A stretch of 64,000 bases of DNA, taken from NCBI GenBank assembly GCA_035299425.1, contig DATGWP010000239.1:1259-65258 (forward strand), in the 5' to 3' direction. The position numbers and the translations under genes are program-made. The stretch comes from Chitinophagales bacterium. GTDB lineage: Bacteria > Bacteroidota > Bacteroidia > Chitinophagales > LD1. The notes beneath the pieces are model-generated. The model was not told the DNA's origin, did no database searches, and saw only the letters and a list, made by a program, of their open reading frames with translations. This document shows positions 9,868 to 36,915 of the stretch, in pieces. Numbering within the stretch: position 1 is the first letter of the stretch; each line of letters opens with the position of its first letter.

Positions 9868-9922
9868 GTAGCCTTCAAGGTCGACTTATCGAACTTTTAT
9901 AGTGACATTCAATTGGTTAGTT
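9868..9922 (-). repeat. cassette-boundary repeat, copy A (core GTAGCC plus X arm, no hairpin)
   Basis: GTAGCCTTCAAGGTCGACTTATCGAAC is identical to copies at 31028 and (one mismatch) 18839. The following roughly 30 nt are about 75% identical by eye. Confidence 0.7.
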
Positions 9923-10316
9923 TTTATCAAAGCAACTTCACTTGACAATATGCTGCGACCTGCCTTTGGACTTCATAAAGCATTCACACCTTAGCTTCTT
10001 CTGTAAATCAATTAAGCAAAATAGATAGGGCAAATAGCAATAAATTATTACGCCCTCTTACAACTATATACCAACCTAAAGCATCAGATTTATTTAAGAG
10101 TAAAAGCACATTGATTTAACCTTATACAATCAGGCAGTAGATGTTTTTGGATAGTAGACCACATATTCCGTTACAGCAGGTAGCTACACTAATAAAAAGG
10201 CTATTCGCAACAAACAACGTATTGGTAAAAAGAGCCGCTGCCCTTTCATTTAACATTATGCCAGCTTGCTGTTTTTTTATATGTGCTGCGCTTAATAATA
10301 CTTTATCAATCAATAA

Positions 10317-10345
10317 AAGCCCGGAATGTTTTCGGGCTTTTGCAT
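10317..10345 (+). terminator. orphan terminator-like hairpin just upstream of the cassette-1 operon
   Basis: AAGCCCG-GAATGTTTT-CGGGCTT followed by TTGCATTTT. It is also flanked by an A-run on its 5' side. It lies 20 nt before the ATG at 10365. Confidence 0.45.
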
Positions 10346-10364
10346 TTTAAATACGGCAATTGTT

Positions 10365-13300
10365 ATGAATTTTAGAAAAATAGAAATAGTACGCTTAATA
10401 TTTACTCTGCTGGCAATAAGCCCGCTGGTTACACCTGTTACGGCTCAGGTGGTAATTAATGAGGTAATGCATTACCCATCTACGGCACAAGGCATAGTAG
10501 CCAGTGGAACGGAGTATGTAGAATTGTTTAACACTAATCCCTGCCAGGCTGTAGATATAAGTTGTTTTATATTAGGGTGTGCAGATAACGATGGAGGTAT
10601 TGTAAACAATGCCGGTAGTATTGTTATTCCATTTGGTACAGTGATCCCTCCTTATGGTCATTACGTAATCGGAACTTCGTCCTCATCTGCTAACCCCGCA
10701 TCTGTTGATTTTAAAACTAATACTAACACGGGTAATTATTGTACGGTTGGTAATTTTGTATTGGCCAATGGCGATGGCTGGGTAGCGCTATACAACGCAA
10801 GCGGCATACCGGTAGATGCATTGTACTGGACTGTTAGTGCAGGTGAAGCAAATAAGGTAGGTACCGATACTGACTTTGACGACAACCCCTGTACACCCCC
10901 TACTGTAGCTAACTGTGTGGCTATATCAACCACCTTGCCTTCGGCAAAGCAGATATTTCAGAACTACCCCTCAGCAATTAGTTATATAGGCCAATATGTA
11001 AATGCTAATACTATTAGTAGAATACCCGATGGCGGTACCTGGACACGCGTTGTTGCCCCATCTATAAACGATGCCACAGTGGGTAACTGTAACGGAGGTA
11101 CTTGCCTTACCCCAAGCGGCATAACATTTACAGCAACCAAAGTTAACCCTACCTGTGCTGGCAGCAATGGTAGTATTACAATAAGTGTTACCCCGGCTGG
11201 CAACGCAACCTATAACTGGAGCGCCAATGCAAACACCGGCAATGCAGCCACTGCATCTAACCTTAATACGGGCACCTATTCTGTTACCATTACACAAAAC
11301 GGTTGCACCAAAGACACCTCCATAACTCTTACCGCCCCTTCAAATCTTGCTTTAGTTATCAGCAACCCGGTAAACCCCACTTGCGCAGGTAATGATGGTT
11401 CATTAACTGTAGCGCTTTCAGGAGGCAGCGGTCCATACACTATCACGGTAGATACAGGTAGTTCATCGTACAATTTTACAAGCCCTGTTGCTGGTCAAAT
11501 CAATCAGGGCAACCTGCCAGCCGGCACTATCAGCATCAGCGTTATAGACGGTAGTGGCTGTACCGCCAGTGCCAGCACAACACTTACTGCACCGGCCAAC
11601 TGTTGTAACCTGTCGCTATCGGCGGCTGTGGTACAACCTACCTGTGGCCAAAGTAACGGAAGTATTTCTGTTACTCCACAGAGCGGCTCAAGCAGCTACA
11701 GCTACAATTGGGCTGGCGGGCAAAGTACAAATGCGGTAACCGGTGTGGCCGCTGGCATTTACCAACTAACCTTAACCGATAACAGCACAGCCAACTGTTT
11801 TATAGATACATCTTTTACGCTAAACTCTAATAGCTCGTTAACAATAACTATCAGTAATGTGGTAAACCCTACCTGTGCCGGCAACAATGGTTCATTAACT
11901 GTAGCGCTTTCAGGAGGCAGCGGGCCATACACAATTACGGTTGATACTGGCAGCGCATCGTATAATTTTACCAGCCCGGTAGCAGGCCAGGTTAATCAGG
12001 GCAACCTGCCAGCCGGCACTATCAGCATTAACGTTGTAGATGGTGGGGGCTGTACTGCCAGTGCCAGCACAACTCTTACTGCTCCGGCCAACTGTTGTAC
12101 ATTTACCGTATCTGCCAATAGTACACAACCGGGCTGCGGTACAGCAAACGGCAGTATAAGCCTTACAGTAAGTGGCGGCTCTGGCAATTACGCGTATAGC
12201 TGGAGCAATGGGCAAAGCACAGCTTCACTATCTGCCCTGCAGGCAGGTACATACCAGGTTACCATTACCGATAATGCTTTTGCCGGTTGCACACGCGATA
12301 CGTTGTTTACACTATCCAACCCCAACAGCCCTGCTATTAACACACTAAACCTGGTGCAGGAAACTTGTCAGGGCACCAGCGATGGTAGTATAACAATAGT
12401 TGCTTCGGGTGGTTCTGGCTCACTATCTTATCAATGGAGTGCTAACGCTGCTACCGGTAACTTGGCCACGGCTGCTAACCTTACCGCCGGCCAGTACTAT
12501 TTTACAGTTACCGATGCTGCCAATTGCCAAACCAGTGGCAGTGCAACTATACAAAGTGGTATTTGCTGTAATCTGCAAATTGCTGTAAACGCAACGCCTA
12601 CTACCTGCGGGTTCAGCAATGGAGATATATCTGTACAGGCTATTAACGGCAGCACACCTTATAACTATGCACTTAAACCCGGCCCACTGCAACCCAATAG
12701 CTTCTTTGATCAGCTACCAGCGGGCTCTTATGAAGTACTGGTAGTTGACAACAACGGCTGTGCAGATTCTGTCAGTATAACAGTAGCTGGCAGCACCAAT
12801 ACGCTTGCTATAGCGTTTACTACAACCGGTGTATCGTGCAATGGTGGTGCAGATGGCACAGTAGCCAGTACTGTTACTGGAGGCAGTCCGCTTTATAGCT
12901 ATGCCTGGAGCAACGGAAGTACCAACAGTACTATTAGCGCAGTTTCGGCAGGGCAGTACATTGTTAGTGTAACAGATAACGATGGGTGTAGTGTAACAGG
13001 CACAGCAGCTGTTTCGCAACCAGCACCGCTTGTTGTTACGCTTGGTAATGATACGTCTATCTGCACAGGCAACCAGTTGAATATTGAAGCGCCTGCAGGC
13101 TATCAGGCATATAGTTGGAGTAATGGTGAAACCGGCAACCAGATACAGGTAAGCACAACAGGCCTGTACACCCTAACCATTACCAATAGCAACAACTGTT
13201 CTGCATCTGCTTCTGTAAACATTAATGTGGCTATACCTGTAAAACCGGACTTAGGTAGCGATATAAGTGTAATCGAAGGGGAAAGTACTTTGCTATCGGC

Positions 13301-13751
13301 AACCAACATATCTGGCGCAAATGGAACCTACCTTTGGGCTCCTGCACAAACATTAAGCTGTAGTAACTGCAGTGCGCCAGTAGCTACACCAGCTACAAAT
13401 ACATTTTACACACTACTGTATATAGATGGCAATAATTGTACAACCGGCGATACCATACTGGTTAATGTAACGCCGGTTGGTAGTGTATTTTATCCTACAG
13501 CATTCAGCCCCAATGGAGATGGCAATAATGATACCTACCGTGTACTGGGTGCCAGCCCAAAATTTTTCAGGTTGAAAATTTTTAACCGCTGGGGCGAACT
13601 GGTATTTGAAAGCAGTAACATAAACGATGAATGGGATGGTATCTATAAAGGGTTACCGCAACCTATGGCTGTATATGTTTATTCATCCACAGTAACCCTT
13701 CAAAACAACCAAACCCGCGACTATAAAGGAAGCATAACATTATTACGATGA
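10365..13751 (+). CDS. giant surface protein: lamin-tail domain, SprB repeats and a T9SS type-B (CHU_C/gliding-associated) C-terminal domain
   Basis: The start is moved to ATG 10365 (MNFRKIEIVRLIFTLLAISPLVTPVTAQ signal), because the ORF-track start lies inside the hairpin. The LTD pattern is VINEVMHYPS...EYVELFN...GWVALYN. There are at least 8 SprB-like repeats (NPTCAG.NGS...Y.W.......L..G.Y.VT..D..GC). The C-terminus is FYPTAFSPNGDGNNDTY...NRWGELVFES...WDG. Confidence 0.85.
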   Translation: MNFRKIEIVRLIFTLLAISPLVTPVTAQVVINEVMHYPSTAQGIVASGTEYVELFNTNPCQAVDISCFILGCADNDGGIVNNAGSIVIPFGTVIPPYGHYVIGTSSSSANPASVDFKTNTNTGNYCTVGNFVLANGDGWVALYNASGIPVDALYWTVSAGEANKVGTDTDFDDNPCTPPTVANCVAISTTLPSAKQIFQNYPSAISYIGQYVNANTISRIPDGGTWTRVVAPSINDATVGNCNGGTCLTPSGITFTATKVNPTCAGSNGSITISVTPAGNATYNWSANANTGNAATASNLNTGTYSVTITQNGCTKDTSITLTAPSNLALVISNPVNPTCAGNDGSLTVALSGGSGPYTITVDTGSSSYNFTSPVAGQINQGNLPAGTISISVIDGSGCTASASTTLTAPANCCNLSLSAAVVQPTCGQSNGSISVTPQSGSSSYSYNWAGGQSTNAVTGVAAGIYQLTLTDNSTANCFIDTSFTLNSNSSLTITISNVVNPTCAGNNGSLTVALSGGSGPYTITVDTGSASYNFTSPVAGQVNQGNLPAGTISINVVDGGGCTASASTTLTAPANCCTFTVSANSTQPGCGTANGSISLTVSGGSGNYAYSWSNGQSTASLSALQAGTYQVTITDNAFAGCTRDTLFTLSNPNSPAINTLNLVQETCQGTSDGSITIVASGGSGSLSYQWSANAATGNLATAANLTAGQYYFTVTDAANCQTSGSATIQSGICCNLQIAVNATPTTCGFSNGDISVQAINGSTPYNYALKPGPLQPNSFFDQLPAGSYEVLVVDNNGCADSVSITVAGSTNTLAIAFTTTGVSCNGGADGTVASTVTGGSPLYSYAWSNGSTNSTISAVSAGQYIVSVTDNDGCSVTGTAAVSQPAPLVVTLGNDTSICTGNQLNIEAPAGYQAYSWSNGETGNQIQVSTTGLYTLTITNSNNCSASASVNINVAIPVKPDLGSDISVIEGESTLLSATNISGANGTYLWAPAQTLSCSNCSAPVATPATNTFYTLLYIDGNNCTTGDTILVNVTPVGSVFYPTAFSPNGDGNNDTYRVLGASPKFFRLKIFNRWGELVFESSNINDEWDGIYKGLPQPMAVYVYSSTVTLQNNQTRDYKGSITLLR

Positions 13752-16276
13752 AAACTATATATATGAAAAATTACCGCCAATCAGTACTAACCTTGTTTGT
13801 TCTGTTGCTATTTGTAATTAGCAATGGCCAGATACTTACCGAAAGTTTCGATTCAACATCGTTTCCACCCGCAGGCTGGAGCAATGTACGCATTGCTGGT
13901 TTTGCATCGCCGGGCACATGGCTGAGAGTTGCTGCAGGTACTAACCCTACCTGCACACCGCACTCTGGCGCAGCTATGGCTTATTTTAATTCATATAGCT
14001 GGAGCGGTGGAAACGCTTCTGACTTAGCTACACCTACTCTTGATTTTTCATCGGGCACATTTGCAGTATCGTTCTGGATGTATCGCGATGGAGGACAAAC
14101 TTCAAAGTACGATAGTGTGGCAGTATATGTAAATACAACAGTTTCATCTGCAGGTGGCACGCGTATAGGCCTGGTAAACAGAGCTGGTAATCTTTCCCCT
14201 GCAGTGCAGGCCGACGGCTGGTACCAATATACGTTCAACATACCGGCATCATATAGCACGGCAACTAATCATATCATATTTAAAGCAACATCCGATTTCG
14301 GCAACCGGATGTATATAGATGATGTTACAGTGTACTTGTTTACCCCACCCACAGATGTGGACTCTGTAACTGCTACCAGCCAGCAGGTATGTACAGGCAG
14401 CCAGCTTACCTTACACGCCAATGGTATTGATGGTGCCGTATACTGGTATGCCGATTCGTGCGGTGGCACCAGTATTGCTACCGGCGATGGCATTACAGTT
14501 TCGCCCTCACAAAACACCACTTACTTTGCCCGTAATTTTAACAATAATCTGTTTAGCATTAACTGTGCATCGGTTAGCATAACTGTAAACCCGGTGTATA
14601 ATACCGTGGTATACGATACCATATGTGCCGGGCAAAGCTACTTACTACACGGAGGCCAACACGCAGATACAACAGGAACGTATAGTATTAACCAGCTAAG
14701 TGCCGCTGGCTGCGATAGTAACACTACAGTATACCTTACTGTACGTCCTGCAACCTATGGGGCATTGCAGCTAACAGGTTGCGCCGGCAATACTATTACC
14801 TATAACAATAAATCATATACGTCGGCAGGGGTGTTTGCCGATACGCTTGTTAATTACTATGGCTGCGATAGCATTGTAACACTCACAATAGCATTTACAC
14901 CAGCCATTACTACCAACGTCCAGCAAACTATCTGCTTTGGCGATACATTCCTGTTTAATGGCAATGTTTATTTTGAAAACGGCACCTATTATGATACACT
15001 AACAGCAGCAAATGGCTGCGATAGCATACTAACCATAACCATAACACAGTTACCTCTGGCAACAGGTAGTATTGCACTTAGCAGTTGCTTTGGCGGTTCG
15101 GTAGAATATAACGGAGAATTTTACTCCTCTACAGGCACTTACACCGACACGCTTACTGCCACTACCGGTTGCGATAGTATTGTAACTATACAAGTGGCAA
15201 TTAATGCGCCGCTGGCTTCGGCTGTTAACTTTACTATCTGCAATAATGATTCGGTGTTGTATAGCAATAACTATTATTACACAGCGGGCACATTTTACGA
15301 TACCCTTACAGCACAAAGCGGTTGCGATAGTTTTGTAACCATTATTATTACACAGCTTCAGGTTCTCTCATCCACTGTAAATTTTGCCTTATGCCAGGGC
15401 AGCAGTATTGAGTATAATGAACGGGTATATTCCATAGCAGGTACCTACACTGATACTTTAACAGCTACAAGTGGCTGCGACAGCATAGTTGCTATACAAA
15501 TTGATGCATTGCCGGCAAACTCGTCAAACGTCAACCTTAGTATCTGCCCGGGCGATTCGATAGTTTACAACAACATAACCTATACTACAGCAGGCAGCTA
15601 TACAGATACCCTTGCAGCTGCTACCGGCTGCGATAGTGTGCTATACATTAACGTAAATACACTGCCACTAATAACCAGTACGGTTAATATTACTATATGC
15701 CCCGGCGACAGCGCCTTTTATAATGGTAGTTATTACTACGCTGCCGGCACGTATACCGACACACTTTCCAGTATTTACGGCTGCGACAGTATTAGCCTGA
15801 TAAATATATCTACCTATAATGTAGACACCCCTGTGGTGACGCAAAACGGTCAGGTACTGGAAACCGGTATTTACAACTCATACCAATGGCTTAAAGACAA
15901 TAGCCCTATATCAAATGCTAATGGGCAAACCTACGCTGTAGCACAAAACGGCAACTACGCTGTTTTAACCACCGATGAAAACGGTTGTACTGCTATATCG
16001 CAGGCTGTTAATGTAACCGGTACGGATATACAATATAGTGCGGATAGCCGTATTACATTGTACCCTAACCCCGCAAACACTACCCTATACTTTAAAGGGC
16101 TTAAAATTAACTGCACCTACAATGTTATGATTTATAACCCCATTGGGCTGTTAGTTACTAATAGCTACCTAACAGCAAGTAACGGTTTAGATGTAAGCGG
16201 TTTGCCATCAGGTGTGTATACTCTTTCTTTGCAAAGCGGATTGGAGGTTGTACATTACACTTTTATAAAACAGTAG
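13748..16276 (+). CDS. T9SS type-A cargo: choice-of-anchor-J-like N-domain plus about 10 GCDS-motif repeats
   Basis: 842 aa. ATGA overlap with the upstream stop. The N-domain is ESFDSTSFPPAGWSN...MYIDDVTVY. A repeated roughly 45-aa module follows (C.G.S...NG..Y...GTYTDTLTA..GCDSIVT). The CTD is LYPNPANTTLYF...GVYTLSL. Confidence 0.85.
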   Translation: MKTIYMKNYRQSVLTLFVLLLFVISNGQILTESFDSTSFPPAGWSNVRIAGFASPGTWLRVAAGTNPTCTPHSGAAMAYFNSYSWSGGNASDLATPTLDFSSGTFAVSFWMYRDGGQTSKYDSVAVYVNTTVSSAGGTRIGLVNRAGNLSPAVQADGWYQYTFNIPASYSTATNHIIFKATSDFGNRMYIDDVTVYLFTPPTDVDSVTATSQQVCTGSQLTLHANGIDGAVYWYADSCGGTSIATGDGITVSPSQNTTYFARNFNNNLFSINCASVSITVNPVYNTVVYDTICAGQSYLLHGGQHADTTGTYSINQLSAAGCDSNTTVYLTVRPATYGALQLTGCAGNTITYNNKSYTSAGVFADTLVNYYGCDSIVTLTIAFTPAITTNVQQTICFGDTFLFNGNVYFENGTYYDTLTAANGCDSILTITITQLPLATGSIALSSCFGGSVEYNGEFYSSTGTYTDTLTATTGCDSIVTIQVAINAPLASAVNFTICNNDSVLYSNNYYYTAGTFYDTLTAQSGCDSFVTIIITQLQVLSSTVNFALCQGSSIEYNERVYSIAGTYTDTLTATSGCDSIVAIQIDALPANSSNVNLSICPGDSIVYNNITYTTAGSYTDTLAAATGCDSVLYINVNTLPLITSTVNITICPGDSAFYNGSYYYAAGTYTDTLSSIYGCDSISLINISTYNVDTPVVTQNGQVLETGIYNSYQWLKDNSPISNANGQTYAVAQNGNYAVLTTDENGCTAISQAVNVTGTDIQYSADSRITLYPNPANTTLYFKGLKINCTYNVMIYNPIGLLVTNSYLTASNGLDVSGLPSGVYTLSLQSGLEVVHYTFIKQ

Positions 16277-16278: not shown

Positions 16279-17625
16279 TTGAAAGGTAAGCGTCTATTTG
16301 AATTATTAATCTGCTTAAATAAAACAGAACACCGGCAGTTGGTTAACCAATGTAAGCTGTCGTTGGATAAACGCGCGGCTGATTTACTTACATTACTTAA
16401 TCATCGCAATCTGAACGATAAGGTATTTGAAAAAATACTATGCAATATAAAAAGCAGCCGTAGCTTTAAAAGTCAGCAAGAAGCCGATAAGTACATTCGA
16501 AGATGGATAGACTATAGTTGTAAGGAGATAGAAGCGCTAATAATCAAAAACACGTTTTCCGCCCCTGCCAACAGGTATCATCAGTTGGCCTCCCATTACG
16601 ATGCGTTAAATAATAGCACGCTAGCGCATTACTACACTTTCGAAGCAATTGCAATTGCAGAAGCACAAGACGACCACCAAACGCTTATTGATATGTACGA
16701 CATACAATTGCGTTGGCTTGGCAGAAATCAGAACAAGCAAAATATCCGGCAGATTGATGCACTGCTTGGGAAAAGGAAAAAAGCAGCGGAAAGAGCATAC
16801 CACAAGGCCATGTCATATTTTTATACAGTATGCTCATCGTTATACATAGATAATCCGTACAATCAGGCTTACATCAAAATAACTCCGGATAAGCAGGAGT
16901 TTGAAAATCTACGTAACGGCACCGACGACGAATACTCTCAAATACTATATACCTTATCTGAAGTAAGGTTTAGCTTTTACAACAAACCTGTATTTGAGCG
17001 TAGTATCAAAAACCTGTTTAATCAAATAGCTTCAAGTGGCCTTACAACTAAACAAAAAGAATACCTCGAACGAAGTTGCCGGTACATAAGGGTAATTGGC
17101 GGACTATACTACGGATATTCTATAGATGTTATGATTGCTGATACAGAGCGCATACTGGATATAATGCTTAAAAACAGGATATACGACACAGTAAGTTTCT
17201 TTTTTCTGCTTTTTTTCCTGCTAATTAAAAATGATGTATCCAGATATAATTTTCTGCTAAACAAGTATGGTACTGTGTTTTTTAGCAATACCAGCAATGA
17301 TTACTTGCTTTTACTGCAAGTCCTTAAAGATTATAAAACCTGTAATGATTTTTTAATGCCGGAAGCTTTACAACAAGCGAGCTACTCTACTAATTTGTAT
17401 GTAGCTGCCTGGAGTAAGCTGTTAGAGCTTGCTACATATAAAAACAGTACACGTTTACATGCATCGTTGGTAAAACGCATTAAGCGCTTTAATAAGTTGA
17501 ATAACACCCTGAAAATAATAAACCACCCGCTTACTATTTTGCTGGAGTGTATAGATAGCAAAAAGAACGTTTCGCCGGCAATATTTGAATACTATCAGTG
17601 GGTTCTGCAGCTACAAAACAAATAG
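16279..17625 (+). CDS. all-alpha hypothetical protein (cassette-1 member of the one-per-cassette set)
   Basis: 448 aa with a TTG start 2 nt after the upstream stop. It is Leu/Lys/Tyr-rich and helix-like throughout, with no signal peptide. The N-terminus LFELLICLNKTEHRQL weakly resembles LHELIHALDKNEKKFL of the 29402 gene. Confidence 0.55.
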   Translation: MKGKRLFELLICLNKTEHRQLVNQCKLSLDKRAADLLTLLNHRNLNDKVFEKILCNIKSSRSFKSQQEADKYIRRWIDYSCKEIEALIIKNTFSAPANRYHQLASHYDALNNSTLAHYYTFEAIAIAEAQDDHQTLIDMYDIQLRWLGRNQNKQNIRQIDALLGKRKKAAERAYHKAMSYFYTVCSSLYIDNPYNQAYIKITPDKQEFENLRNGTDDEYSQILYTLSEVRFSFYNKPVFERSIKNLFNQIASSGLTTKQKEYLERSCRYIRVIGGLYYGYSIDVMIADTERILDIMLKNRIYDTVSFFFLLFFLLIKNDVSRYNFLLNKYGTVFFSNTSNDYLLLLQVLKDYKTCNDFLMPEALQQASYSTNLYVAAWSKLLELATYKNSTRLHASLVKRIKRFNKLNNTLKIINHPLTILLECIDSKKNVSPAIFEYYQWVLQLQNK

Positions 17626-18674: not shown

Positions 18675-18722
18675 GTTATAGCCGATAGTGCTTCCGGATG
18701 GTAGTGCGTGATTTAGAAAACA

Positions 18723-18896
18723 ACACTTATCCAACCACACGGATGAATTCTGTTATCCTTCAAATCTCTCAACTGGCGCAGGTTTCAGCCGAAAATAAAA
18801 AACGGAATTCTTCTAACAATAAGGAGAATTCCGCTAGGGTAGCCTTAAAGGTCGACTTATCGAACCTTTGGAGTGATATTCAGCTAGTTAATTCTT
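18723..18896 (-). repeat. cassette-boundary repeat, copy B (F arm, hairpin, core and X arm)
   Basis: 18723-18844 aligns with 36727-36848 (107/122 identical by hand count). The hairpin CGGAATTCT-N15-AGAATTCCG lies at 18802-18834. The core GTAGCC is at 18839. The X arm runs to about 18896. Confidence 0.8.
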
Positions 18897-24556: not shown

Positions 24557-24595
24557 ATCGTTAAGCTTTGATGAATTCAATAAATCATGGCTATT

Positions 24596-27500: not shown

Positions 27501-29119
27501 GGTGCAGATGAACCACAAGTATTAACTGCAGACACCGCTATATTTCCGCTACTGCTACCAGAAGTAACTCCTATTGCATTTGAGGTTGAAGTTCCACTCC
27601 AACCAGATGGTAATGTCCAGGTGTATGAGGTAGCACCTGCCACAGCAGTAATACCGTACGTAAGTGAATTGCCATTACAAACAGACGTAAGTCCGGTAAT
27701 TGTGCCCGGCTGTGCTGGTATGCTACTTACTGTTAGGTTTCTTGTTTGTGGAGTAGAACTACAGGAGCCATTATTGGCCGTAACAGTTATCGTGCCACCG
27801 CTATTACCTGCAGTTACAGCTATAGAGTTAATAGTAGAACTACCGGTCCAGCCAACAGGTAAGGTCCATGTATACGAAGTAGCACCAGACACTGATGATA
27901 TGCTATAGGTTTGCGAGCTACCTGTACAAGGCGAAGCATTTCCGGTAATAATGCCAGGCTGAGCAGGAACAGCATTTGTTGTAACGTTGATCGTTCTTGC
28001 TGCTGAGCTGCAACCTCCGATATTCGCCCGCACACTAATAGTACCACTGGTATTTCCCACCGTTGTAGTGATTGAATTGGTAGTAGATGTGCCGGTCCAG
28101 CCGGTTGGCAAAGTCCATGTATAAGATGTTGCGCCCGAAACAGCCGATACACTATAGGTCTGGCTGGCACCAATACAGCCCGTTGCACTTCCGGTAATAT
28201 TGCCTGGCTGTGCGGGAGGGTTACAATAAACCAATATAGTTCCGCTGTTTCCCGCAATCCAACCAGAAGTAGCTGAAACCATGTATACAGCATTCAGTGC
28301 CTGGGTTGTTCCAGATGCCTCAGATGTCCAGGTGGCACCACCATTGGTTGTTTTCAATATTATACCATTGTCACCTACAGCCCAGCCTTGCGTTGCTGAA
28401 ACAAAATATACGCTTCGTAACGTTTGCGTGGTGCCCGATGTTTGAGCAGACCACGTTGTTCCACCGTTAGAAGTGGCTCTGATTGTACCGCTTGCACCTA
28501 CAGCCCAGCCCTGAGTATCGTTTGCAAAGTATACACCAAACAAATCCTGAGTAGTACCGGTAGTAAGCGATGTCCAGTTGGTGCCCGAATTAGTGGTTTT
28601 TAGAATTTTTCCACCTGCTCCGGCTACCCAACCCAGGTTCACATTTCTAAAGTAAACTGCTCTAAGGTCGTTTTGTGTTCCCGAAGATTGGCCAATCCAG
28701 CCGCTTCCGGTAGTTCTTCTGATAGTTCCTGCAGCTCCAACTATCCAACCGGTTGAAGAGGACACCATCTGTATATCATATAAATTGCTTGTGGTATTAG
28801 AAACAGCCGAAGACCATGTAGTGCCATTTGAAGTCATTATCCCCCCTCCGCTTCCGCAAATCCAGCCTTGCGAAGTTGAAACAAAACTACTACCATACCA
28901 GGTTAATGTTGCTGCAGATTGTGTAGACCACGATTGTCCGGCCGAGTTAGTGGCTCTGGCGGTTCCGGAAGCACCTACAGCCCAACCAACTGTAGAAGAT
29001 GGAAAACTAAGTGAAAACAAATTCTGTGTGGTGCCTGATGTTTGTACGTTCCAGGTTTGTGCATTTGCGCCGTTTAAAACAAAACTGGCAATAAGTAATA
29101 AAGCATAAAGTTTGTTCAT
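24596..29119 (-). CDS. giant T9SS type-A cargo: BNR/Ycf48-like propeller, six PKD-like modules and about nine Ig-like repeats
   Basis: 1507 aa with signal MNKLYALLLIASFVLNGANAQ. Asp-box-like TTNSGTNWTS, TSNGGTTWSA and TTNGGATWTS are present. The PKD-like modules repeat ...PAQPG.ITG....C.G..QTYS...V.GATSYTWTLP.GW.G.ST.NSI. The Ig-like repeats are paralogous to those of the downstream gene. The CTD is VMPNPFQHYITI...GAYVLRI. Confidence 0.85.
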   Translation of the reverse strand: MNKLYALLLIASFVLNGANAQTWNVQTSGTTQNLFSLSFPSSTVGWAVGASGTARATNSAGQSWSTQSAATLTWYGSSFVSTSQGWICGSGGGIMTSNGTTWSSAVSNTTSNLYDIQMVSSSTGWIVGAAGTIRRTTGSGWIGQSSGTQNDLRAVYFRNVNLGWVAGAGGKILKTTNSGTNWTSLTTGTTQDLFGVYFANDTQGWAVGASGTIRATSNGGTTWSAQTSGTTQTLRSVYFVSATQGWAVGDNGIILKTTNGGATWTSEASGTTQALNAVYMVSATSGWIAGNSGTILVYCNPPAQPGNITGSATGCIGASQTYSVSAVSGATSYTWTLPTGWTGTSTTNSITTTVGNTSGTISVRANIGGCSSAARTINVTTNAVPAQPGIITGNASPCTGSSQTYSISSVSGATSYTWTLPVGWTGSSTINSIAVTAGNSGGTITVTANNGSCSSTPQTRNLTVSSIPAQPGTITGLTSVCNGNSLTYGITAVAGATSYTWTLPSGWSGTSTSNAIGVTSGSSSGNIAVSAVNTCGSSAPRTLAVTTNQTPAQPGAITGNTTVCYNTSNTFSVATVPGATSYTWTIPSGWTGTSTTNSITVTAGTVGGTISVKANNGSCSSAAQTLAVSVITAPLNGPGSITGATQVCSGSAQTYSVPGIASATSYTWTLPSGWTGSSTTTSINVTTSSSAGNVTVVAVNSCGTSQASSLPVTVSGTVTPTIAINAATNPLCAGAQATFTSSITNGGNAPAYQWKNNGSNITGATSSTYSSSTLANGDVISCVLTSNSGCANPTTATSNNVTVTLTPNVTPGVSISTTNSSICSGTSVTFTASPTNGGAAPVYQWKVNGNNEGAGSNTYTSSTLANNDVVSCVLTSNAACASPVTAASNSVTMTVASPVAPSISISATQTTICSGNSVTFTAVPANGGNAPAYQWKLNGTNIGGATNATYSSSSLNDNDQISCELTSSASCISSGNATSNTVTIAVSSTVTPSVIVTTSADSVCPGESVTFTAAGTNGGTTPSYQWKKNGTDINAATSSSYTTSTVLSSDVFTCVLTSSVGCASPTTAVSNSKSVYIKPTFTPTVSITPSSNSICENGNVNFTSTVSGEGSAPTYQWKVNSVDVSGEVGAAFSSATLAIGDEVTLQLTSSDACAVPSVVESAPAALTINPLVTPSVSISASQTVICSGASVVFTATVAHGGTSPGYQWKLNGNNITGETNSTYTSTSLVDGDEVSCAISSNATCAAVSGATSAGIALTENSTVTASVTIATASTNLCDGQQVVFAATPANGGAAPVYQWLKNGSTISGATLPTYTEISPANNDMFKCEMISNASCVQQPTVLSNELQLTVNVLPDVTVSQSANTLTVPTAATYQWFDCTSSADISGANSATYTATANGNYAVRVSNSAGCIDTSQCVNVTGVGIIEAVGAGIQVMPNPFQHYITINLLDNVSQQGVVELYDVTGRLVVQNTLTTVPYQLDVMQAKQGAYVLRITTGGYVWVKRLVKE
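25160..27020 (-). repeat. intragenic array of about 9 diverged repeats of roughly 280 nt each (Ig-like modules)
   Basis: The protein-level period is roughly 92-95 aa with the recurring motif P.YQWK.NG..I.GAT...Y.S..L..GD...C.LTS...C. The coordinates are approximate. Confidence 0.6.
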
Positions 29120-29335: not shown

Positions 29336-29401
29336 TAAAACCTAATTTATAGAGAACAACAACTATGTTTCTCAGATAGGTTGGCAGATACTTGCAGTTA
29401 T

Positions 29402-30880
29402 ATGGCCACACTCAAACAATTACATGAACTAATCCATGCGTTAGACAAAAACGAGAAAAAGTTTTTGAGCTTAATGATTGAAGGTATAGGCGGTAAAGCA
29501 AAAGCACGTTACGCTGATGCTTTTCAAATTATTAACTCGGGCAAAATATATGAATCTGAAAAACTCAGATTGAAACTTGCCGGTGGTGTAAATGGCATGA
29601 ACGTAAGCGAAGCCAATACTAATTTCTATGGTTTCGTATGTAAAGCACTGGTTGCTTATTACGGCACAGAGGCAGGCAACATTGGCATTAATAAAAAAAT
29701 ACTTTTAATAGAAATATTGTGTACTAAAGCCTTGTATGATACAGCAAACAAAATGATTGATGAACTGATACCCATTGTTCAAACCTCAGGAACATTCGCG
29801 ATGCAACACAGATTATTTGAACTAAAAAACAATATTTATATCAATAACAGCAGCCTGAACAAAAAGTATAAAGAACGCTACCAATACTATGATGCCCGTA
29901 TACAAGCCTTACAGGACAATCTTCAATCTGTACAGATAACCAGGCTGAATACTCAATTCTTTGAGTTAGCACATACGGTTGGCGACCCTCGAAACAGTGC
30001 ACAACACCAAAAGTATGTACAACTATCTAAAGACCCTCTACTTCAACTTTCTGTTTCGTCAATCAACAAGCGTTCTTTGGCAACATACATACAACTAAAA
30101 CTATCAATGGAAGTATTGTCGGGCAGCAAAAAAGATGTTTTTGAATTATGCGAGTTATTATTGGATGAAATAAGACACAAATCAGCAGGACAGGAACAAC
30201 TATCCCAGGAATATTTTATTGCCGATTTTATGGCAGGCGAAGCCTTACAACTGGCCATTAAGAAAAAAGCGTATGAAAGTATTCGCATTTTCGAGGATCT
30301 GGATAAAAAGACTTTTAGTAAGGGTATAAAGCAAAAAATACTCGCCCGTACTTTAATGGTACGCCTTACTATTTTTTTATGGGAGAAAGATTATACCGGA
30401 GCAGAAAGGTTACTTAACGATTGTATGGCCGAAGACAAGAAAAAACAATGGACAACTGCTAACCTGGCCTACGTTAATTTCCTTTTGGCTGCACGTATTA
30501 TGTATCTGGCAGGAAAACCAGACAAAGCCCTGGACTACCTGCTTATGATGGAACCTTTTGAAAAGATACTAAGACCTAACATTCACATAAGCTATCGTTT
30601 CCTTTTTTTACTTTGCCACTACAACCTTAAAAACTATCAGTTCCTGACGTATTCTACTGAATCGTTATATAGATTGTTGCTGAAAATGGATAAGCTTTAT
30701 GCACCGGAGCGCGCTTTATTACGGTTTGTTAAAACCGCCAGCAATCCTAATAAACTAAATACTGCAATCAATAAACTTTACAACGAACTTATGATATTGG
30801 AAGCTGATAGATTTAACAAGCCATTTTTTGCTCATGGTGACTATAAACAATGGTTGAGTGCTATGCTGAAACTAAAGTAA
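29402..30880 (+). CDS. all-alpha hypothetical protein (cassette-2 member), divergent from the three-gene adhesin operon
   Basis: The start is moved to ATG 29402 (MATLKQLHELIHALDKNEKKFLSLM). 492 aa, helical/TPR-like composition, no signal peptide. Confidence 0.6.
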   Translation: MATLKQLHELIHALDKNEKKFLSLMIEGIGGKAKARYADAFQIINSGKIYESEKLRLKLAGGVNGMNVSEANTNFYGFVCKALVAYYGTEAGNIGINKKILLIEILCTKALYDTANKMIDELIPIVQTSGTFAMQHRLFELKNNIYINNSSLNKKYKERYQYYDARIQALQDNLQSVQITRLNTQFFELAHTVGDPRNSAQHQKYVQLSKDPLLQLSVSSINKRSLATYIQLKLSMEVLSGSKKDVFELCELLLDEIRHKSAGQEQLSQEYFIADFMAGEALQLAIKKKAYESIRIFEDLDKKTFSKGIKQKILARTLMVRLTIFLWEKDYTGAERLLNDCMAEDKKKQWTTANLAYVNFLLAARIMYLAGKPDKALDYLLMMEPFEKILRPNIHISYRFLFLLCHYNLKNYQFLTYSTESLYRLLLKMDKLYAPERALLRFVKTASNPNKLNTAINKLYNELMILEADRFNKPFFAHGDYKQWLSAMLKLK

Positions 30881-30978
30881 TAAAGCTTTGGTATACATAA
30901 CTCACTTGATCATTTAAACAAAGTCGTACTGATGTATGAATTGAACTGCGAAATCGCAGATTTGACAATGCCTTCAAG

Positions 30979-31086
30979 AGAAAATAAAAAGCGGAATTCT
31001 TCCAAAATTAAGGAGAATTCCGCTCTGGTAGCCTTCAAGGTCGACTTATCGAACCTTTGGAGTGATATTCAAGCAGTTAATTCTTA
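30979..31086 (-). repeat. cassette-boundary repeat, copy C (short F arm, hairpin, core and X arm)
   Basis: The hairpin GCGGAATTCTTC-N9-GGAGAATTCCGC lies at 30991-31023. The core GTAGCC is at 31028. The X arm CTTCAAGGTCGACTTATCGAACCTTTGGAGTGATATTCAAGCAGTTAATTCTT runs to 31086. Confidence 0.8.
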
Positions 31087-31220
31087 TCAATATGTGTTTA
31101 GAAATCTGGCTGCCAAAATCTTAACAAGGCGCTTATTAAGGGTTTATTGAAAAAAAACTAACCCCAGTTTTAAAATCAATCGCGGTGCAATATTTTATTC
31201 TATAAGCAACTCTATTGTGC

Positions 31221-31276: not shown

Positions 31277-34200
31277 TTATTTCCCGGTGGTAGTAACCAG
31301 ACGGCCATTGATTACATCCAGCTGCGCTTGCATGGCTTTAATCATTTCCATTAATTCTTTGTCGCCCGACTGCATTTTTTTAATTGTGGCCTTTAGCGAT
31401 TCATTCTCGTTTGTCAGAGCTGATATTTTTTTATCAAGCTCCTGTGTGGCCGAAACATTGAGCATAGAGATAGCCTCATAATCTACCGATAACAGGTCGC
31501 TAACTTCTGTGCCATAAACAAAAATCTTATCCGATTTTTCAGCCTCTTTGGGCTCTCTAAAGTGAATTGTAAGAGTGTTGCCATTTACTGATTTAATAGT
31601 GCCTTCCTCCTGTTTTGAAAGCTGCGGGTTGGTTTTATCATTCAGGTAAAAACGAATGGCAGCACCAGCAACAATATCGGCCTTATCTTTTTGCAGTATG
31701 GGTGTTGGCAACACCAAAGTAATAATGCTGTCAGTAACAGTAAAATTGCTAACCACTTGGTACAGGTTGGCAATATATCTTTTAGCTGCGGTGTGCATGG
31801 TAGCCTGCGGATATACTTTTTCTATTTGTTGGGCAATAACTTTTTTAAACGGCTTTGTGTTTTCGTGCTTATCGCGTAAGGTATAGTCTGTTATTTCAAT
31901 ACGGTTAAGGGTTTGCAGGTCATCAGCACCTTTGCTTATACCGGCTATATCTTTTAAACGTTCATCGCTGTGTATTACAAAGCCCGAACCGCTGCCTATC
32001 CAGTTATTGGCATATATACTCACGCTGCCGGTAGTAGCATTACTAGAACTAGAAAGGCCAACATTTCCTATTCCAAACCATGTTTCTGCTGAGGTCCAGC
32101 AGGCGCAATAGCCACCTGCGTCTGATACATCAAGCGGAAAGCGGGGAGCCCAGGTGCCAATTCCCACCTGGCCCTGGATAATAGCTCCATTGGTAGGTGC
32201 CGTAAAGGTTCCGGCATAACCCGAGCCTATGGCCATGTTGCCGCGCACATCAAAAATATTATACCTGGTTTGCCCTTGCATTCCTACGCCAAGTGTGCCA
32301 TTAAAATTTCCATCACCTGAAACATGAAATGTAAAAGTGGGGTTATTTGTTCCTATACCTACTAATCCACCATTCGTAAATCTAACAGTTTCGGTTCCTG
32401 CATTACCAAATATAAAACTGCCGGATTGAGTCATAAATATACGATCGCCAGGGATGGAATTGACAAAATAGCCGCCATTTTGGGTGCTAACTGCATCATA
32501 CGCCTTAATTATACCGTTTTTCCGGAAAGTAATTTCCGGATATTCATCGGCATCAACAGCCAGAGTAAACTGAGAAGGGCTTTTGATATGCAATTTTGAA
32601 TTAGGATTTACTGTTCCAATACCCACCTCACCTCCTACGTTATAAATATTTGTAGAGTTGGTAACCCAGGTTGAGCCGTTCCAGTAAGTTGTGCTACCGG
32701 TATCGGTGGCAGCAGCTAAAAAGCCCGTTGCACCTTGTGCGCCTGTTGCGCCCGTTGCACCGGTGGCTCCTGCAGGCCCCTGAGCACCTTGTGCCCCATT
32801 TGTACCATTTGTTCCTGTAGGGCCTGTGGCACCCTGCACACCGGTAGCTCCTACTACACCCTGCACACCGGTTGGTCCTGTTGCGCCCGTTGCACCGGTA
32901 GAGCCTGTAACTCCTGTTACCCCCTGCGGGCCGGTAGGGCCATATATTTGCGGTAGGGCTTGCCATTTTGCTATGCCGCTTGCATCAATAGCAGTTAGCA
33001 CTGAACCGGCTACAGCAGTTCCATCATTTATTTTTACGTTACCGTTTACATCCAACCTGGCTGCCGGCGTAGTGGTGTTAATTCCCATGTTGCCAAGGTA
33101 GTCCACCACTAAAGCTGATCCGGGATTGGTAACATAAGCCTTTAAACCAAAGTCTACATCATGTCCGGTATAATATTGGTAGCTGCTTACTCCACCTGTA
33201 TAAGAGGGCGATGGAAAAGAGTCTACATTGTTAGTGGCCCAAAAGAGTGGATTGATATTGGAATTCAGATAGAAGGAATAAACATCTCCCGCATTCACGT
33301 ACCGGTTTCCGGATAGGATAAACTCGTAATACGTAGGTGTAGTAGTAAGTGTAGCGTTCAGGGTGGTGGAACCCAAATTGTTGCCATTACCATCGGGTCC
33401 GGTAAGCGTGGTAATGGTTAAGTTATAAGGGCCCGGCGTAGTGGTGTAAAGAGGCAAAGCTATTTTAGTTAAGTAGCCCGAACGGGTAAACGTAACCGAT
33501 TGCCATGCATCGTTATAATATTGGGGATTGTTGACGTCCCAGCCCTGCACAAAAGTGTTATCGATGGTATTTGCAACCAAAAGAGTCTGGTTACCTGAGC
33601 TTATGCGGAATGCATCGCCGTAAAAGTCGCTAATGTTTACATCCAATTTTGCAGCAGGGCTTGTAGTACCAACACCCACGCCGCCTCCATTATTATAAAT
33701 ATTACTGTTATTAATCACCCACTGGGTGCCGTTCCAATAAGTTGTATTACCTGCGCTGCTGCCGTTTGCCAGTAAACCGGTTGCACCCGTTACACCTGTT
33801 GGTCCTGTAGCACCCGTTACACCATTCGTTCCATTTGCTCCTGTTGCCCCCGTAGCACCATTCGTTCCATTGGTGCCGTTAGCGCCGGTAGCACCTGTAT
33901 TTCCGGCTACTCCGGCAGGGCCCTGCGTACCGGTGGGGCCTATTGGACCTTGTGGACCGGTTGCACCATTATTTCCATTTGTACCGTTGGCACCTGTGGC
34001 CCCGGTAGTACCAGTATGGCCATTCGCACCGGTTGGGCCTGTTGGTCCCTGCGCACCGGTAGCGCCTGTATTACCATTGCTGCCTTGCGCTCCCGGTTGT
34101 CCTTGTAAGCCCGTGGCACCGGTGGAGCCAGTTATACCCTGTGCACCTGTGGCGCCATTAGTTCCATTTATACCATTTGCGCCGGCTGGGCCTGTTGGTC

Positions 34201-34813
34201 CCTGTGCGCCGGTAGCGCCTGTATTACCATTGCTGCCTTGCGCTCCCGGTTGTCCTTGTAAGCCCGTGGCACCGGTTGGGCCGGTTATACCCTGTGCACC
34301 TGTGGCGCCATTAGTTCCATTTATACCATTTGCGCCAGTTGGGCCTGTTGGTCCCTGTGCGCCGGTGGCCCCAGTGTTTCCTGTTGAACCGGTGGCCCCT
34401 TGTGGACCGCTGCCTCCGTTTGCTACGTCGCCCGCAAATAAGGCATAAGGTACACTCAATAACTGAGAGGTTCCCATATCGGTATAACTAGAACCACCGT
34501 TTACATCTACTTGTACCTGCAAATATTTTGAACCCGTACCCCAGTTAACAGCTGCAAGGTTGCCTGCACTACCAATTATATGAGTAATCAACCCAAACTG
34601 ATTGGTTGTTTCTGTGGCTGTTTCCTGAAAAACAACTGCGCCCGTTGGGGAGCCTTCGTGAATCTGAAACCGTAAAGATACATTTGTACCAGCCGCCAGG
34701 GTATGTCCAGTTGCATCACGGACTACCGCCTGGTAATTAAACTGCTGCGGCACTTGTGCCGTAAGCACCAGCGATAGCGCCACTATTAGATTAGAAAGAA
34801 TAATTTTTTTCAT
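31277..34813 (-). CDS. collagen-like / tail-fibre-like protein with a C-terminal peptidase-S74 intramolecular-chaperone domain
   Basis: 1178 aa with a signal peptide. The N-domain is shared with the 41658 gene. There are two Gly-X-Y regions (about 70 and about 25 triplets). The .GIGT..P..KL.V.G motif occurs four times. [10 protein letters not shown]...[11 protein letters not shown] at aa 949 onward matches the S74 autoproteolysis/chaperone pattern. The tail is a coiled coil. Confidence 0.8.
34020..34390 (-). repeat. in-frame tandem repeat, 153-nt period, about 2.3 copies (collagen region)
   Basis: GGTAGCGCCTGTATTACCATTGCTGCCTTGCGCTCCCGGTTGTCCTTGTAAGCCCGTGGCACCGGT occurs at 34058 and 34211. 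The encoded 51-aa unit is [49 protein letters not shown]. Confidence 0.85.
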
Positions 34814-34825: not shown

Positions 34826-34932
34826 GGAGGTGGAGAAATTTGATGGAGCAAAGGTAGATGTGCCGCAATTCTATATTCCCTACAAATTCCCTACAGAAAT
34901 CTATTAGGCCGCAGAAGTATTATTTTTGTCCT

Positions 34933-36615
34933 ATGAAAAACGCTCTAAAAGCACTTGAAAGTATTAAGGAATTAATCCCCTCTAACACTCAGGAAGCGAA
35001 TAAGGCTTTGCAAAAATTCACCGCAGGTATAAAAAACACAGGTGGCGGTTTACTAAAGGCCAAAGCAGAACTACTTGGGGAAATGATTGCATTGGATATT
35101 GCTCCTTACGATAAAAGGAAATTCGATGGCAAAAAACTACTTACCTGCTTTAGCAGGGTAAAAAAATACGATGATGCTGCATGGGCACTACTGGCCAGTG
35201 CTGATAATTTTTTTTACCGCGGCAATTTACAGCAGGGAGAAAACTGCCTGCAACAAATACGAGAAAAGTTAGCTGATAAAATTTCGTTAGAAACAGAATC
35301 TACCTACCTGCTGCGGATGGCCCATGTGAGTAATGTAAAAAGGGAATATGCGCAACGTATGTATATAGGCATGCAAGGGTTGGAGAAAATGAAAGCAGCA
35401 GACCATAGAAATACCTGGTGGTATGCTAATTATACCGCCTTCTGTATTGTTATAGCAGATTCGTATTTTCGTAATGACCAGTTTGAAGAAGCATGGCCTT
35501 ATTTACAGGATGCTTTGGAGATTGATAAAACAAAAACGATTTCCACGCGTTTCCGGCAGGATATTTATCATCACATAGCTACTTATTATAGCATAAAAGA
35601 TGATAACAAAACCAGTATAGAGTGGTATGAAAAGGCAATAGACCTTTTAAAAAATGAACACCCAAACCATACCAACCTGGTAGGTTTATACTATCTTATT
35701 TCTTATGGCTGTTTCCTGGCATTTAACCAAACCCCATCGGCGCAAAAAACAACCCGGTCGAAATTGCTTCTAAAAATGGAGCACTGCCTTGACCATTGCG
35801 AAAAAATTGTTTTGAAACTGGATTCTCCCCTGCACATGGCCCATTTACAATCAAGCAGAAGCCGGCTTGAATTGCTTAAAAAGAATTATGGCCAAGCAAT
35901 CCGCCTGTTAAATATAAGTCTGCCGGTGCACCAAAAATTCAACCATTTAAATGGCATTACCGAATATTACCATATTGGTAATAGGATATATTACGAATGG
36001 GCCCGGCAAAAAAACGATCCCCCAAAACTATGGAAGGCTTACAAATACCTGGAAACCTTTAACAGAATAGTGCGTGACAACGCTAAAAAAATCACCCAAA
36101 GGAAACTGGATGCGGTTAGAGATACTTATGAGTTGAAACAGAAGAAACTGAATGAGCAGTTGATGCAACAACAAATTGAAGCCTTAAATAAAGAAATTCA
36201 CCTTGCCACTTTAAACCTGCACGATAAAATTATAGTGCTTGATGAATTGAAGACCTTTGTACAGTCGCTTAGAAAAAAAGACCTTGAAATGCGCCAGCTT
36301 ACTAAATCGATTGTGCAGAAAATTGAATCGGTTAAAATTACGGAGCACGACAAAAACCGCTTACAGCAAAAGCTTACTGAAAGCAACCGTGATTATGATA
36401 AGTTACTTATAGAAAAACATCCTGCGCTAACCAAACTCGAAGTAAATATGTGCAGCCTCTTCCGCACCGGCATAACCGATAAAGAACTGGCCAAACTATA
36501 CGGACAAGGATACAAAAGTTATGAGCAGCACCGTTGGCGGATAAAAAAGAAAATGGGACTGGGGCGTGATGTTAATTTGGTTAAGTACCTGGTGGGCCTG
36601 GGTCGATCATTATAA
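34933..36615 (+). CDS. TPR-like protein with coiled coil and a C-terminal LuxR/GerE-type HTH (putative transcriptional regulator, cassette 3)
   Basis: The start is moved to ATG 34933 (MKNALKALESIKEL). 560 aa with a helical-repeat N-terminal two thirds. The C-terminus LTKLEVNMCSLFRTGITDKELAKLYGQGYKSYEQHRWRIKKKMGL fits the LuxR-type HTH pattern. Confidence 0.65.
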   Translation: MKNALKALESIKELIPSNTQEANKALQKFTAGIKNTGGGLLKAKAELLGEMIALDIAPYDKRKFDGKKLLTCFSRVKKYDDAAWALLASADNFFYRGNLQQGENCLQQIREKLADKISLETESTYLLRMAHVSNVKREYAQRMYIGMQGLEKMKAADHRNTWWYANYTAFCIVIADSYFRNDQFEEAWPYLQDALEIDKTKTISTRFRQDIYHHIATYYSIKDDNKTSIEWYEKAIDLLKNEHPNHTNLVGLYYLISYGCFLAFNQTPSAQKTTRSKLLLKMEHCLDHCEKIVLKLDSPLHMAHLQSSRSRLELLKKNYGQAIRLLNISLPVHQKFNHLNGITEYYHIGNRIYYEWARQKNDPPKLWKAYKYLETFNRIVRDNAKKITQRKLDAVRDTYELKQKKLNEQLMQQQIEALNKEIHLATLNLHDKIIVLDELKTFVQSLRKKDLEMRQLTKSIVQKIESVKITEHDKNRLQQKLTESNRDYDKLLIEKHPALTKLEVNMCSLFRTGITDKELAKLYGQGYKSYEQHRWRIKKKMGLGRDVNLVKYLVGLGRSL

Positions 36616-36726
36616 AAAGACTTTATTAAAGACCGCACCTATGCCGGATGGAATACTACCTTGACAGCAAAGCAAAAATGCAGAGGGCGATGTTTACCGA
36701 TGGTTTAGCCTACAACCACCCAAATC

Positions 36727-36848
36727 ACACTTATGGAACCAAACGCGTGAATTCTGTCATCCTTCAAATCTCACAACTGGCGCAGGCTTCAGCCGAAAAC
36801 AAAAAGCGGAATTCTTCCAAGATTCAGGAGAATTCCGCTCGGGTAGCC
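36727..36848 (-). repeat. cassette-boundary repeat, copy D (F arm, hairpin and core), overlapping the tRNA 3' end
   Basis: It aligns with 18723-18844. The hairpin at 36806-36838 acts as the tRNA terminator on the minus strand (followed by CTTTTTGTTTTC). The core GTAGCC at 36843-36848 is the complement of the acceptor 3' strand plus the discriminator base. Confidence 0.8.
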
Positions 36849-36915
36849 GCGAGCAGAATCGAACTGCTATCTAGAGTTTAGGAAACCCTTGTTCTATCCG
36901 TTGAACTACGTGGCC
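36844..36915 (-). tRNA. tRNA-Arg (anticodon CCT)
   Basis: Hand-folded cloverleaf: GGCCACG-TA-GTTC-AACGGATA-GAAC-A-AGGGT-TTCCTAA-ACTCT-AGAT-AGCAG-TTCGATT-CTGCT-CGCGGCT-A. The D, anticodon and T arms pair. The acceptor stem has G1-U72 and an A5/C68 mismatch. No CCA is encoded. Confidence 0.8.

Follow-up and report, generated by a model that had tools for sequence, protein, structure and literature searches.

A 27-kb Array at a tRNA-Arg(CCT) Gene

The DNA analyzed in this study is a 64,000-nt stretch, hereafter referred to as the window, of contig DATGWP010000239.1 from an uncultured Chitinophagales soil bacterium (metagenome-assembled genome GCA_035299425.1). It contains a 27-kb array of surface-protein genes (window positions 9874–36840), which starts at the 3′ end of a tRNA-Arg(CCT) gene and is divided into three cassettes by a repeated junction sequence. 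We consider it probable that the array consists of three cargo-only integrative cassettes which were inserted site-specifically at the 3′ end of this tRNA gene and are moved by a recombinase encoded elsewhere.

The tRNA-Arg(CCT) gene is the only tRNA found by ARAGORN in the window (36841–36916, minus strand) and also gives an Rfam match at 36844–36915 (57 bits). It is intact, and the array begins at its final bases, where the terminal GGCTAC (GTAGCC at 36843–36848 on the plus strand) represents core D, the putative attachment point. The other end of the array borders on flank A (9712–9867, minus strand), through which a methyltransferase-like gene of 313 aa (8770–9711, minus strand) is reached.

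GTAGCC is present at all four junctions, A to D (9868, 18839, 31028, and 36843), with spacings of 8,971, 12,189, and 5,815 bp. The hexamer by itself is not enriched (42 in the window vs. 32.5 expected); its significance rests on its placement between arms, not on its count. Both core B (18839–18844) and core C (31028–31033) are found in the order F arm, GGTAGCC, X arm, and this form fits neighbors in a tandem array. Junction D has the order F arm, GGTAGCC, tRNA, and at core A (9868–9873), the distal junction of the array, the order is flank, TGTAGCC, X arm. Read on the minus strand, the filled junctions have either the tRNA body or an X arm on the left, then GGCTAC(C), and either an F arm or the native flank on the right. 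Each element is bounded on both sides by a short direct repeat of the target, GTAGCC, which can be lengthened to GGTAGCC or TGTAGCC.

The F arms make up repeat family D10 (18718–18844, 30907–31033, and 36722–36848; spacings of 12189 and 5815 bp). The copies at B and D share 87% identity, in line with a similarity of ∼120 nt that the original prediction had pointed out for these two junctions, and the copy at C is 62% identical to the B reference copy. F arm B (18718–18838) forms the tRNA-proximal end of cassette 1, F arm C (30971–31027, also covered by repeat family D19) that of cassette 2, and F arm D (36722–36842) that of cassette 3, where it would now serve as the terminator of the tRNA gene. 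All three are on the minus strand and contain a 33-nt hairpin, GCGGAATTCTTC-N9-GGAGAATTCCGC, with one mismatch at 18802–18834 and none at 30991–31023 and 36806–36838; no such hairpin is expected in shuffled sequence. Since the hairpin folds far better than shuffles (about −23 kcal/mol, z = −4.2) and is followed by a T-run on the minus strand, it is a minus-strand terminator.

The X arms are ∼60 nt long and make up repeat family D14 (9864–9938, 18835–18909, and 31024–31098; 76–79% identical; spacings of 8971 and 12189 bp). They represent the inner ends of cassette 1 (9874–9935, nhmmer 67 bits), cassette 2 (18845–18906, 73 bits) and cassette 3 (31034–31095, 72 bits), all on the minus strand. The nhmmer profile found only these three copies within the 64 kb, all at junctions. 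The GTAGCC sites, the three hairpins, the X arm copies and the anchor spacings of the original prediction could all be reproduced.

Empty and Alternatively Occupied Sites in Relatives

The first informative relative, L001, is a 2,871-nt Logan contig which was found via the flavin adenine dinucleotide (FAD)-linked oxidase gene adjoining the tRNA gene and is ∼95% identical to the window. Its positions 1–219 match window 9656–9873 with 93.6% identity, and its positions 212–2871 match window 36841–39502 with 95.6% identity. The two matches overlap by 8 nt, which represent the core, so that flank, GGTAGCC and tRNA are contiguous, without the 27-kb array. The k-mer assembler is unlikely to have joined them falsely, as sites A and D share only ∼8 nt. 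The empty site that the original prediction had proposed to look for is thereby found, with the 9.8-kb flank joined straight to tRNA-Arg, and flank A is the native sequence downstream of the tRNA gene in this strain. The suggestion that the F arm is the native 3′ flank of the tRNA had to be abandoned, since the tRNA in L001 runs into the 9.8-kb flank and the F arm consequently came with the inserted elements.

The second relative, L002 (from DATGXP01), was found via the X arm and matches window 6432–9919. Its flank is 92–99% identical to the window in 100-nt bins, through the 600 nt before GTAGCC. Over the X arm, i.e., the 60 nt that follow, identity falls to 76%, which does not exceed the 73–85% identity of the other X copies to one another, and no similarity is seen beyond, where the gene encodes a different collagen-like protein. 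As the identity breaks at the core, the X arm belongs to the inserted DNA and the core is where the insert starts. L002 accordingly holds a different element at the same site, with a shared flank ending at GTAGCC and an unrelated interior, which is the kind of polymorphism that had been sought. The flank of L001 is nearer to that of L002 (96.8%) than to that of the window, and taken together L001, L002 and the window represent three strains with three states of one site. Judged from these alignments, the cassettes are real insertions at one site of 6–8 bases, and integration at the tRNA 3′ end gains support from both the empty site of L001 and the alternative element of L002.

The array could also have arisen without a dedicated recombinase, by segmental duplication and rearrangement, with the empty site produced by a rare deletion between the 8-bp microhomologies at GTAGCC 9868 and 36843. 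Junctions A and D have only 6–8 bp in common, GTAGCC is a common hexamer, and no recombinase gene was found. Elsewhere in the window, too, surface-protein genes are gained or lost with no X or F involved; the segment at 40.3–47.8 kb is absent in the related loci L009 and L013. This explanation does not easily account for the use of one short sequence, set between arms of the same two types, at four junctions, or for the element in L002, which is unlike cassette 1 yet terminates at the identical base and has a paralogous X arm there. Nor are the cassettes duplicates of one another. We therefore regard such an origin as very unlikely and retain site-specific insertion as the better account of the junctions.

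No further empty or filled sites were obtained from more distant loci (L009, L013, L014, and L020–L029), as neither the adjacency of tRNA and methyltransferase genes nor the X arm is conserved beyond the species level. In relatives with 90–94% identical oxidases, the genes upstream are unrelated, and the tRNA gene is either missing there or reversed and abutting the start codon.

By eye, the acceptor stem of the tRNA (window 36844–36915) has a G1-U72 pair and an A5-C68 mismatch, and the tRNA in L009 has U5-G68 instead. Because the tRNA sequence is identical in the empty-site strain, the A5-C68 mismatch was not brought by the insertions.

Cassette Gene Content

Pfam domains in the cassettes include SprB, CHU_C, Por_Secre_tail, PKD, Ig_7, DUF5122, and collagen. 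A type IX secretion signal, either CHU_C or Por_Secre_tail, is present in five large proteins, which also have SprB, PKD, Ig_7, BNR, or DUF5122 domains. The cargo had originally been described as secreted adhesin- or collagen-like proteins plus one all-alpha protein per cassette, and both the Pfam content and the helical proteins described below agree with this.

Cassette 1 encodes, all on the plus strand, a surface protein of 1141 aa, which has SprB repeats and the type IX secretion signal CHU_C (10326–13751), an 842-aa Ig_7 protein with a Por_Secre_tail signal (13748–16276), and a 448-aa protein predicted to be all-helical (16279–17625), which has no match in Pfam, NCBIfam or PHROGs. Two overlapping open reading frames of 141 and 202 aa follow (17693–18674), the second of them (18066–18674) collagen-like according to Pfam. 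Possibly they are a single gene that a frameshift or an error of assembly has interrupted.

Cassette 2 has three minus-strand genes with Por_Secre_tail signals according to Pfam, coding for a 578-aa DUF5122 beta-propeller protein (19110–20846), a 1243-aa PKD/Ig protein (20849–24580) and a 1507-aa PKD/BNR/Ig protein (24596–29119), and a plus-strand gene for a 499-aa BT2802-family protein of the tetratricopeptide repeat (TPR)-like, regulator type (29381–30880; NCBIfam NF058569 at the N-terminus, E 3.9e-17). Cassette 3 consists of a 1178-aa collagen-like protein with a Peptidase_S74 chaperone domain (31277–34813, minus strand) and a 585-aa TPR protein (34858–36615, plus strand), both assigned with Pfam. 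Exact-protein look-ups gave no match for the 585-aa protein, the 313-aa methyltransferase-like protein or P0244.

Close to the F end of every cassette, the plus strand codes for one helical protein. That of cassette 2 (499 aa) is a member of a large family of ∼500-aa proteins (971 representatives) whose profile matches TPR proteins in the PDB, and a 63%-identical homolog of the 585-aa protein is annotated by JGI as a CsgD-family DNA-binding regulator. The single-sequence AlphaFold2 model of the 448-aa protein is all-helical, with a pLDDT of 46.6 that is too poor for a fold search. BLASTP detected no similarity among the three proteins (448, 499, and 585 aa). The only results of profile comparison were an N-terminal motif of 22 residues (448-aa protein) and a TPR-like match at 31% probability (585-aa protein).

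Search for Recombinase and Mobility Genes

No integrase, transposase, phage or conjugation family was found with Pfam, either in the cassettes or in the rest of the window, and the searches of the cassette reading frames against NCBIfam and PHROGs did not show a recombinase. The only PHROGs matches were those of collagen repeats to tail-fiber families and two weak ones (E 0.0005–0.007). The lack of a recombinase, which the original prediction had stated for the cassettes, thus holds there and extends to the flanking genes, as far as Pfam is concerned. Since none is encoded in either the cassettes or the 64-kb window, a recombinase that moves them would have to act in trans. The cassettes were also considered as DNA of foreign composition; their GC content is like that of the flanks, and this was ruled out.

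Properties and Distribution of the X Arm

Copies of X in other genomes were searched for with an invariant 18-mer in 185,579 species representatives. Seven stretches were found, five of which are true X copies, one per genome and all within Chitinophagales/Bacteroidota, including copies in contigs CAVYQA010000001, CANJZE010000007, JAZKEP010000006 and CAYREY010000058. Among metagenome contigs one further true copy could be identified in L018, where X is followed by GGGTACC, AGA and another terminator. None of the 32 fetched loci contains the F hairpin. Given these counts, X is rare and lineage-restricted and not a dispersed terminator or repetitive extragenic palindromic (REP) element; the high-copy repeat that had been named as a refuting case did not turn up, X being present once per genome in five other genomes. 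A phage or plasmid origin was rejected, as viral contigs and phage and plasmid collections gave no match to X.

The surroundings of the other X copies are less easily read. Type IX secretion cargo genes are common on both sides of them, and in L004 a gene starts 21 nt past the core. These loci neither confirm X as the distal end of a tRNA-anchored element nor fit easily with such a role.

Both the X arm and the tRNA contain GTTCGAT inside a hairpin with its foot 3 nt from GGCTAC. From this resemblance the X arm may imitate the T-arm and 3′ end of a tRNA, which we mention as a lead only, since X escapes detection by the tRNA model and its outer stem varies between copies. The nhmmer alignment further shows a 1-nt variation in the spacing of two conserved X blocks. 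X and its core might be a resident chromosomal unit, i.e., a regulatory DNA site or a small-RNA gene next to surface-protein genes that happens to resemble a tRNA end and serves as a secondary site for an integrase of tRNA-Arg. The integrase would excise chromosomal segments as circles and re-insert them at the tRNA gene, and the cassettes would be captured pieces of chromosome. Besides the GTTCGAT and GGCTAC shared by X and tRNA and the variable spacing, which is as in a protein-binding or promoter-like site, the setting of X points in this direction, since in L005, L006 and L008 a lone X separates convergent genes and the fetched locus contains no tRNA, and in L004 it lies directly upstream of a gene start. 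The cassette genes also look chromosomal. Other results speak against it: X gave no Rfam match at E up to 10, not even to the tRNA model, reading the alignment of nine copies shows no conservation of the outer stem of its hairpin, and no sigma-70-type site was called in X. A resident unit would still need the same unseen recombinase and would not by itself explain the shared F arms. We find this explanation quite unlikely compared with insertion of cassettes that carry X as one of their ends.

Several other roles for the arms were considered. X was tried as a structured RNA, and X_A, which lacks the F hairpin, folds no better than shuffles (z = +0.5); where the X_B-F and X_C-F folds do have low z-scores, these fall on the F terminator hairpin. 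Rfam searches with X-core-F gave no curated family and only chance-level matches to the terminator hairpin. An outward promoter in X was likewise dropped, as no TAnnTTTG motif could be seen by eye in addition to the missing sigma-70-type call. A plus-strand frame is open across the F arm, core and X arm (or antisense tRNA) at 18698–18919, 30932–31150, and 36648–36881. Between F_B and F_D, 8 of the 16 differing codons in this frame are synonymous, vs. 1–4 in each of the other five frames. In most copies the X part translates as KVDLSN..D.Q.., one position of which uses four different Leu codons. Against a coding role, the frame gave no Pfam match, and in the other loci it is interrupted or has no start codon.

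The 3-nt distance between hairpin foot and GGCTAC, common to X and tRNA, would also be expected if an HUH-type enzyme recognized hairpin, 3 nt and GGCTAC in the T-arm region of the tRNA and in X, and moved single-stranded DNA as IS200/IS605 or rolling-circle elements do. The elements have no terminal inverted repeats as read from the sequence, and a Y1 transposase gene is present in a related genome (L014), both of which are compatible with this. Yet no Y1_Tnp gene or other gene of this kind was found in the window, and IS200/IS605 elements have a Y1 transposase and similar hairpins at both ends, while the F and X hairpins are unrelated to each other. In addition, F is an ordinary terminator, and a different one in L018, and cassettes of 6–12 kb are far larger than known members. 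Single-strand movement is therefore highly improbable.

Proposed Mechanism and Points Against It

Crossover would take place within or beside GGCTAC(C), a stretch made up of the final four bases of the acceptor stem, the discriminator and one or two C. The F arm would be the tRNA-proximal end of an element and the conserved ∼60-bp X arm its distal end, and the F arm, as a strong minus-strand terminator, would replace the downstream sequence displaced from the tRNA gene. Joined round the core, X and F would constitute the attachment site of the element, and recombination of circular X-core-F elements with a tRNA-core-flank site would give the observed junction pattern. As cargo, the elements would carry surface proteins of the type IX secretion system and the TPR-type regulators belonging to them, and the recombinase might be supplied by an autonomous relative of the elements or by a chromosomal gene. 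It would presumably be of the tyrosine type with an overlap of ∼7 bp, and the identity of 6–8 bp fits such an overlap region. The cassettes were probably inserted serially, one by one, and may still be mobile.

Several observations weigh against this reading. The identity shared with the tRNA is only 6–8 bp. No recombinase remnant, no remnant of an integrative and conjugative or integrative and mobilizable element (ICE/IME), and no helper element could be found within the 64 kb. Neither BLASTP nor profile comparison revealed a hallmark gene shared by the three cassettes, and their GC content (0.42–0.45) is close to that of the flanks (0.43–0.47). No tRNA or integrase lies near the other five X copies within the loci of 1.2–8 kb, and in L005 housekeeping genes are found 2.6 kb inside X. 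The collagen and regulator pair of cassette 3 is present in another genome with 84% identity, where the 121 nt after the regulator stop are unrelated and the contig ends before the place at which an F arm would be expected; the 63% homolog of the 585-aa regulator sits among housekeeping genes. As these genes are found elsewhere without arms, the cassettes look like ordinary chromosomal gene sets. The neighborhood as a whole is also unstable in relatives, both in the genes upstream of the oxidase and in the presence of the block at 40.3–47.8 kb. Finally, all sequences compared are metagenome assemblies, and the array may instead have originated in one step.

Comparison With Known Systems

The 3′ end of tRNA genes is a recognized sublocation for integrases (10.1101/2020.11.02.365908). 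Like classical tRNA islands and prophages with an asymmetric 3′-end sublocation, the array leaves the tRNA intact and has short direct repeats at both ends, but it differs from them in having no integrase gene beside the tRNA and no phage or conjugation genes.

Tandem accretion and cis-mobilizable elements (CIMEs), which have kept their att sites and lost the recombination genes, have been described, e.g., for the ICESt1 family of Streptococcus thermophilus (PMC5704250). CIMEs resemble the cassettes in having both att junctions, no integration or transfer genes and a tandem position at the 3′ end of a target gene, and they are likewise expected to move only via the recombinase of a related element. 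They are, however, decayed ICEs or IMEs, usually with remnants, and are defined beside a related functional element. The array has no remnant or helper in 64 kb, carries complete surface-protein gene sets and has 6–8 bp in common with its target. Tycheposons in Prochlorococcus are tRNA-anchored islands that grow by successive integrations (10.1101/2020.12.28.424599). They share with the array niche-specific cargo at tRNA genes, newer insertions pushing older ones inward, but carry a tyrosine or large serine recombinase and usually replication genes, and are flanked by partial tRNA copies. In the array only the last 6–8 bases of the tRNA are repeated, next to an X arm of non-tRNA sequence. In behavior the array matches both CIMEs and tycheposons, being tandem, rich in cargo and placed at a tRNA end. 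With neither an integrase nor a replication module it is not a tycheposon or a classical island, and strictly speaking it is not a CIME, as no ICE/IME remnants and no helper are in view.

Recombinase-less cargo units which are bounded by short conserved sites and moved by host enzymes include integron cassettes, clusters of attC sites lacking integron-integrases (CALIN arrays), and the Xer-dependent IMEX and pdif modules. Integron cassettes and CALIN arrays are like the array in that cargo without its own recombinase is delimited by a short conserved recombination site. Their cassettes are short, have a single reading frame and one orientation, whereas those described here are 5.8–12.2 kb long, multi-gene and coded on both strands. 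An attC-type structure (paired RYYYAAC and GTTRRRY cores) could not be seen at the junctions by reading, where the junction falls at GTAGCC, rather than inside GTT as in integrons, with no complementary core pair. The sole palindrome at the junctions, AAGGTCGA-CTTA-TCGAACCTT, has a 4-nt center and lies 3 nt from the junction. Xer-dependent modules are bounded by 28-bp dif-like sites and cross over in the central region of these. No 28-bp dif-like site was seen by reading the junctions, for which no dif consensus for the lineage was at hand. X also differs from REP-type repeats and miniature inverted-repeat transposable elements (MITEs), which have many copies per genome, in being found once per genome in five genomes.

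A bolder proposal is that X and the 7-bp core form the site of an undescribed Chitinophagales cassette system, in which an outside recombinase, chromosomal or carried by a helper element, stacks, swaps and removes complete surface-protein modules at tRNA-Arg. Variation of the cell surface would then proceed in an integron-like or pdif-like manner, with modules consisting of type IX secretion cargo and its own regulator. We consider this unlikely, though conceivable.

Neighboring Genes

Several rearrangements and repeats were noted around the array. In L009, where the oxidase is 94% identical, tRNA-Arg(CCT) is reversed (9928–10000) and its last base abuts the ATG of the FAD-linked oxidase gene; the upstream sequence that precedes this ATG in the window and in L013 is missing. 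There is thus another breakpoint exactly at the 3′ end of this tRNA. At 40300–47830 of the window a PNP_UDP_1 gene, a collagen-C1q protein and a 1526-aa Ig_7 type IX secretion protein lie between GH1 and metallo-beta-lactamase genes. GH1 and metallo-beta-lactamase genes are adjacent in L009 and L013, which lack this 7.5-kb block, and no X or F could be seen at its edges. In L013 the PNP gene is found on the other side of the FAD oxidase gene in the opposite orientation. The Y1 (IS200/IS605-type) transposase gene of L014 (17018–17581; oxidase 90% identical) lies beside type IX secretion cargo genes.

Upstream of a ClpB-like gene (49900–52467), three 79-nt repeats with the hairpin-forming GCCATCGGTTGAAACCGACGGC could be identified (49341–49654; 67–84% identical), which look like a small REP- or MITE-like cluster. 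The window also contains a class A bacterial RNase P RNA (62285–62677, plus strand; 217 bits).

Significance for the Bacteroidota Cell Surface

Type IX secretion cargo makes up much of the variable surface of Bacteroidota, and little is understood about the exchange of such giant genes. An island at a tRNA gene is nothing unusual. Less common is a clean array of three cassettes without a recombinase, with presence/absence among strains and an end that is conserved across genera. Here, three complete modules of cargo and regulator are delimited by one and the same short site at a tRNA gene of a soil bacterium, with empty and alternative states among strains. If the cassettes are only decayed islands, the array would represent an ordinary, though unusually clean, case of tRNA accretion. 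If the trans-acting enzyme exists, there would be a dedicated route for the swapping of surface modules in a large soil lineage, with a compact attachment site of a ∼60-bp X arm and a 7-bp core. The array offers a direct handle on the exchange of type IX secretion surface repertoires.

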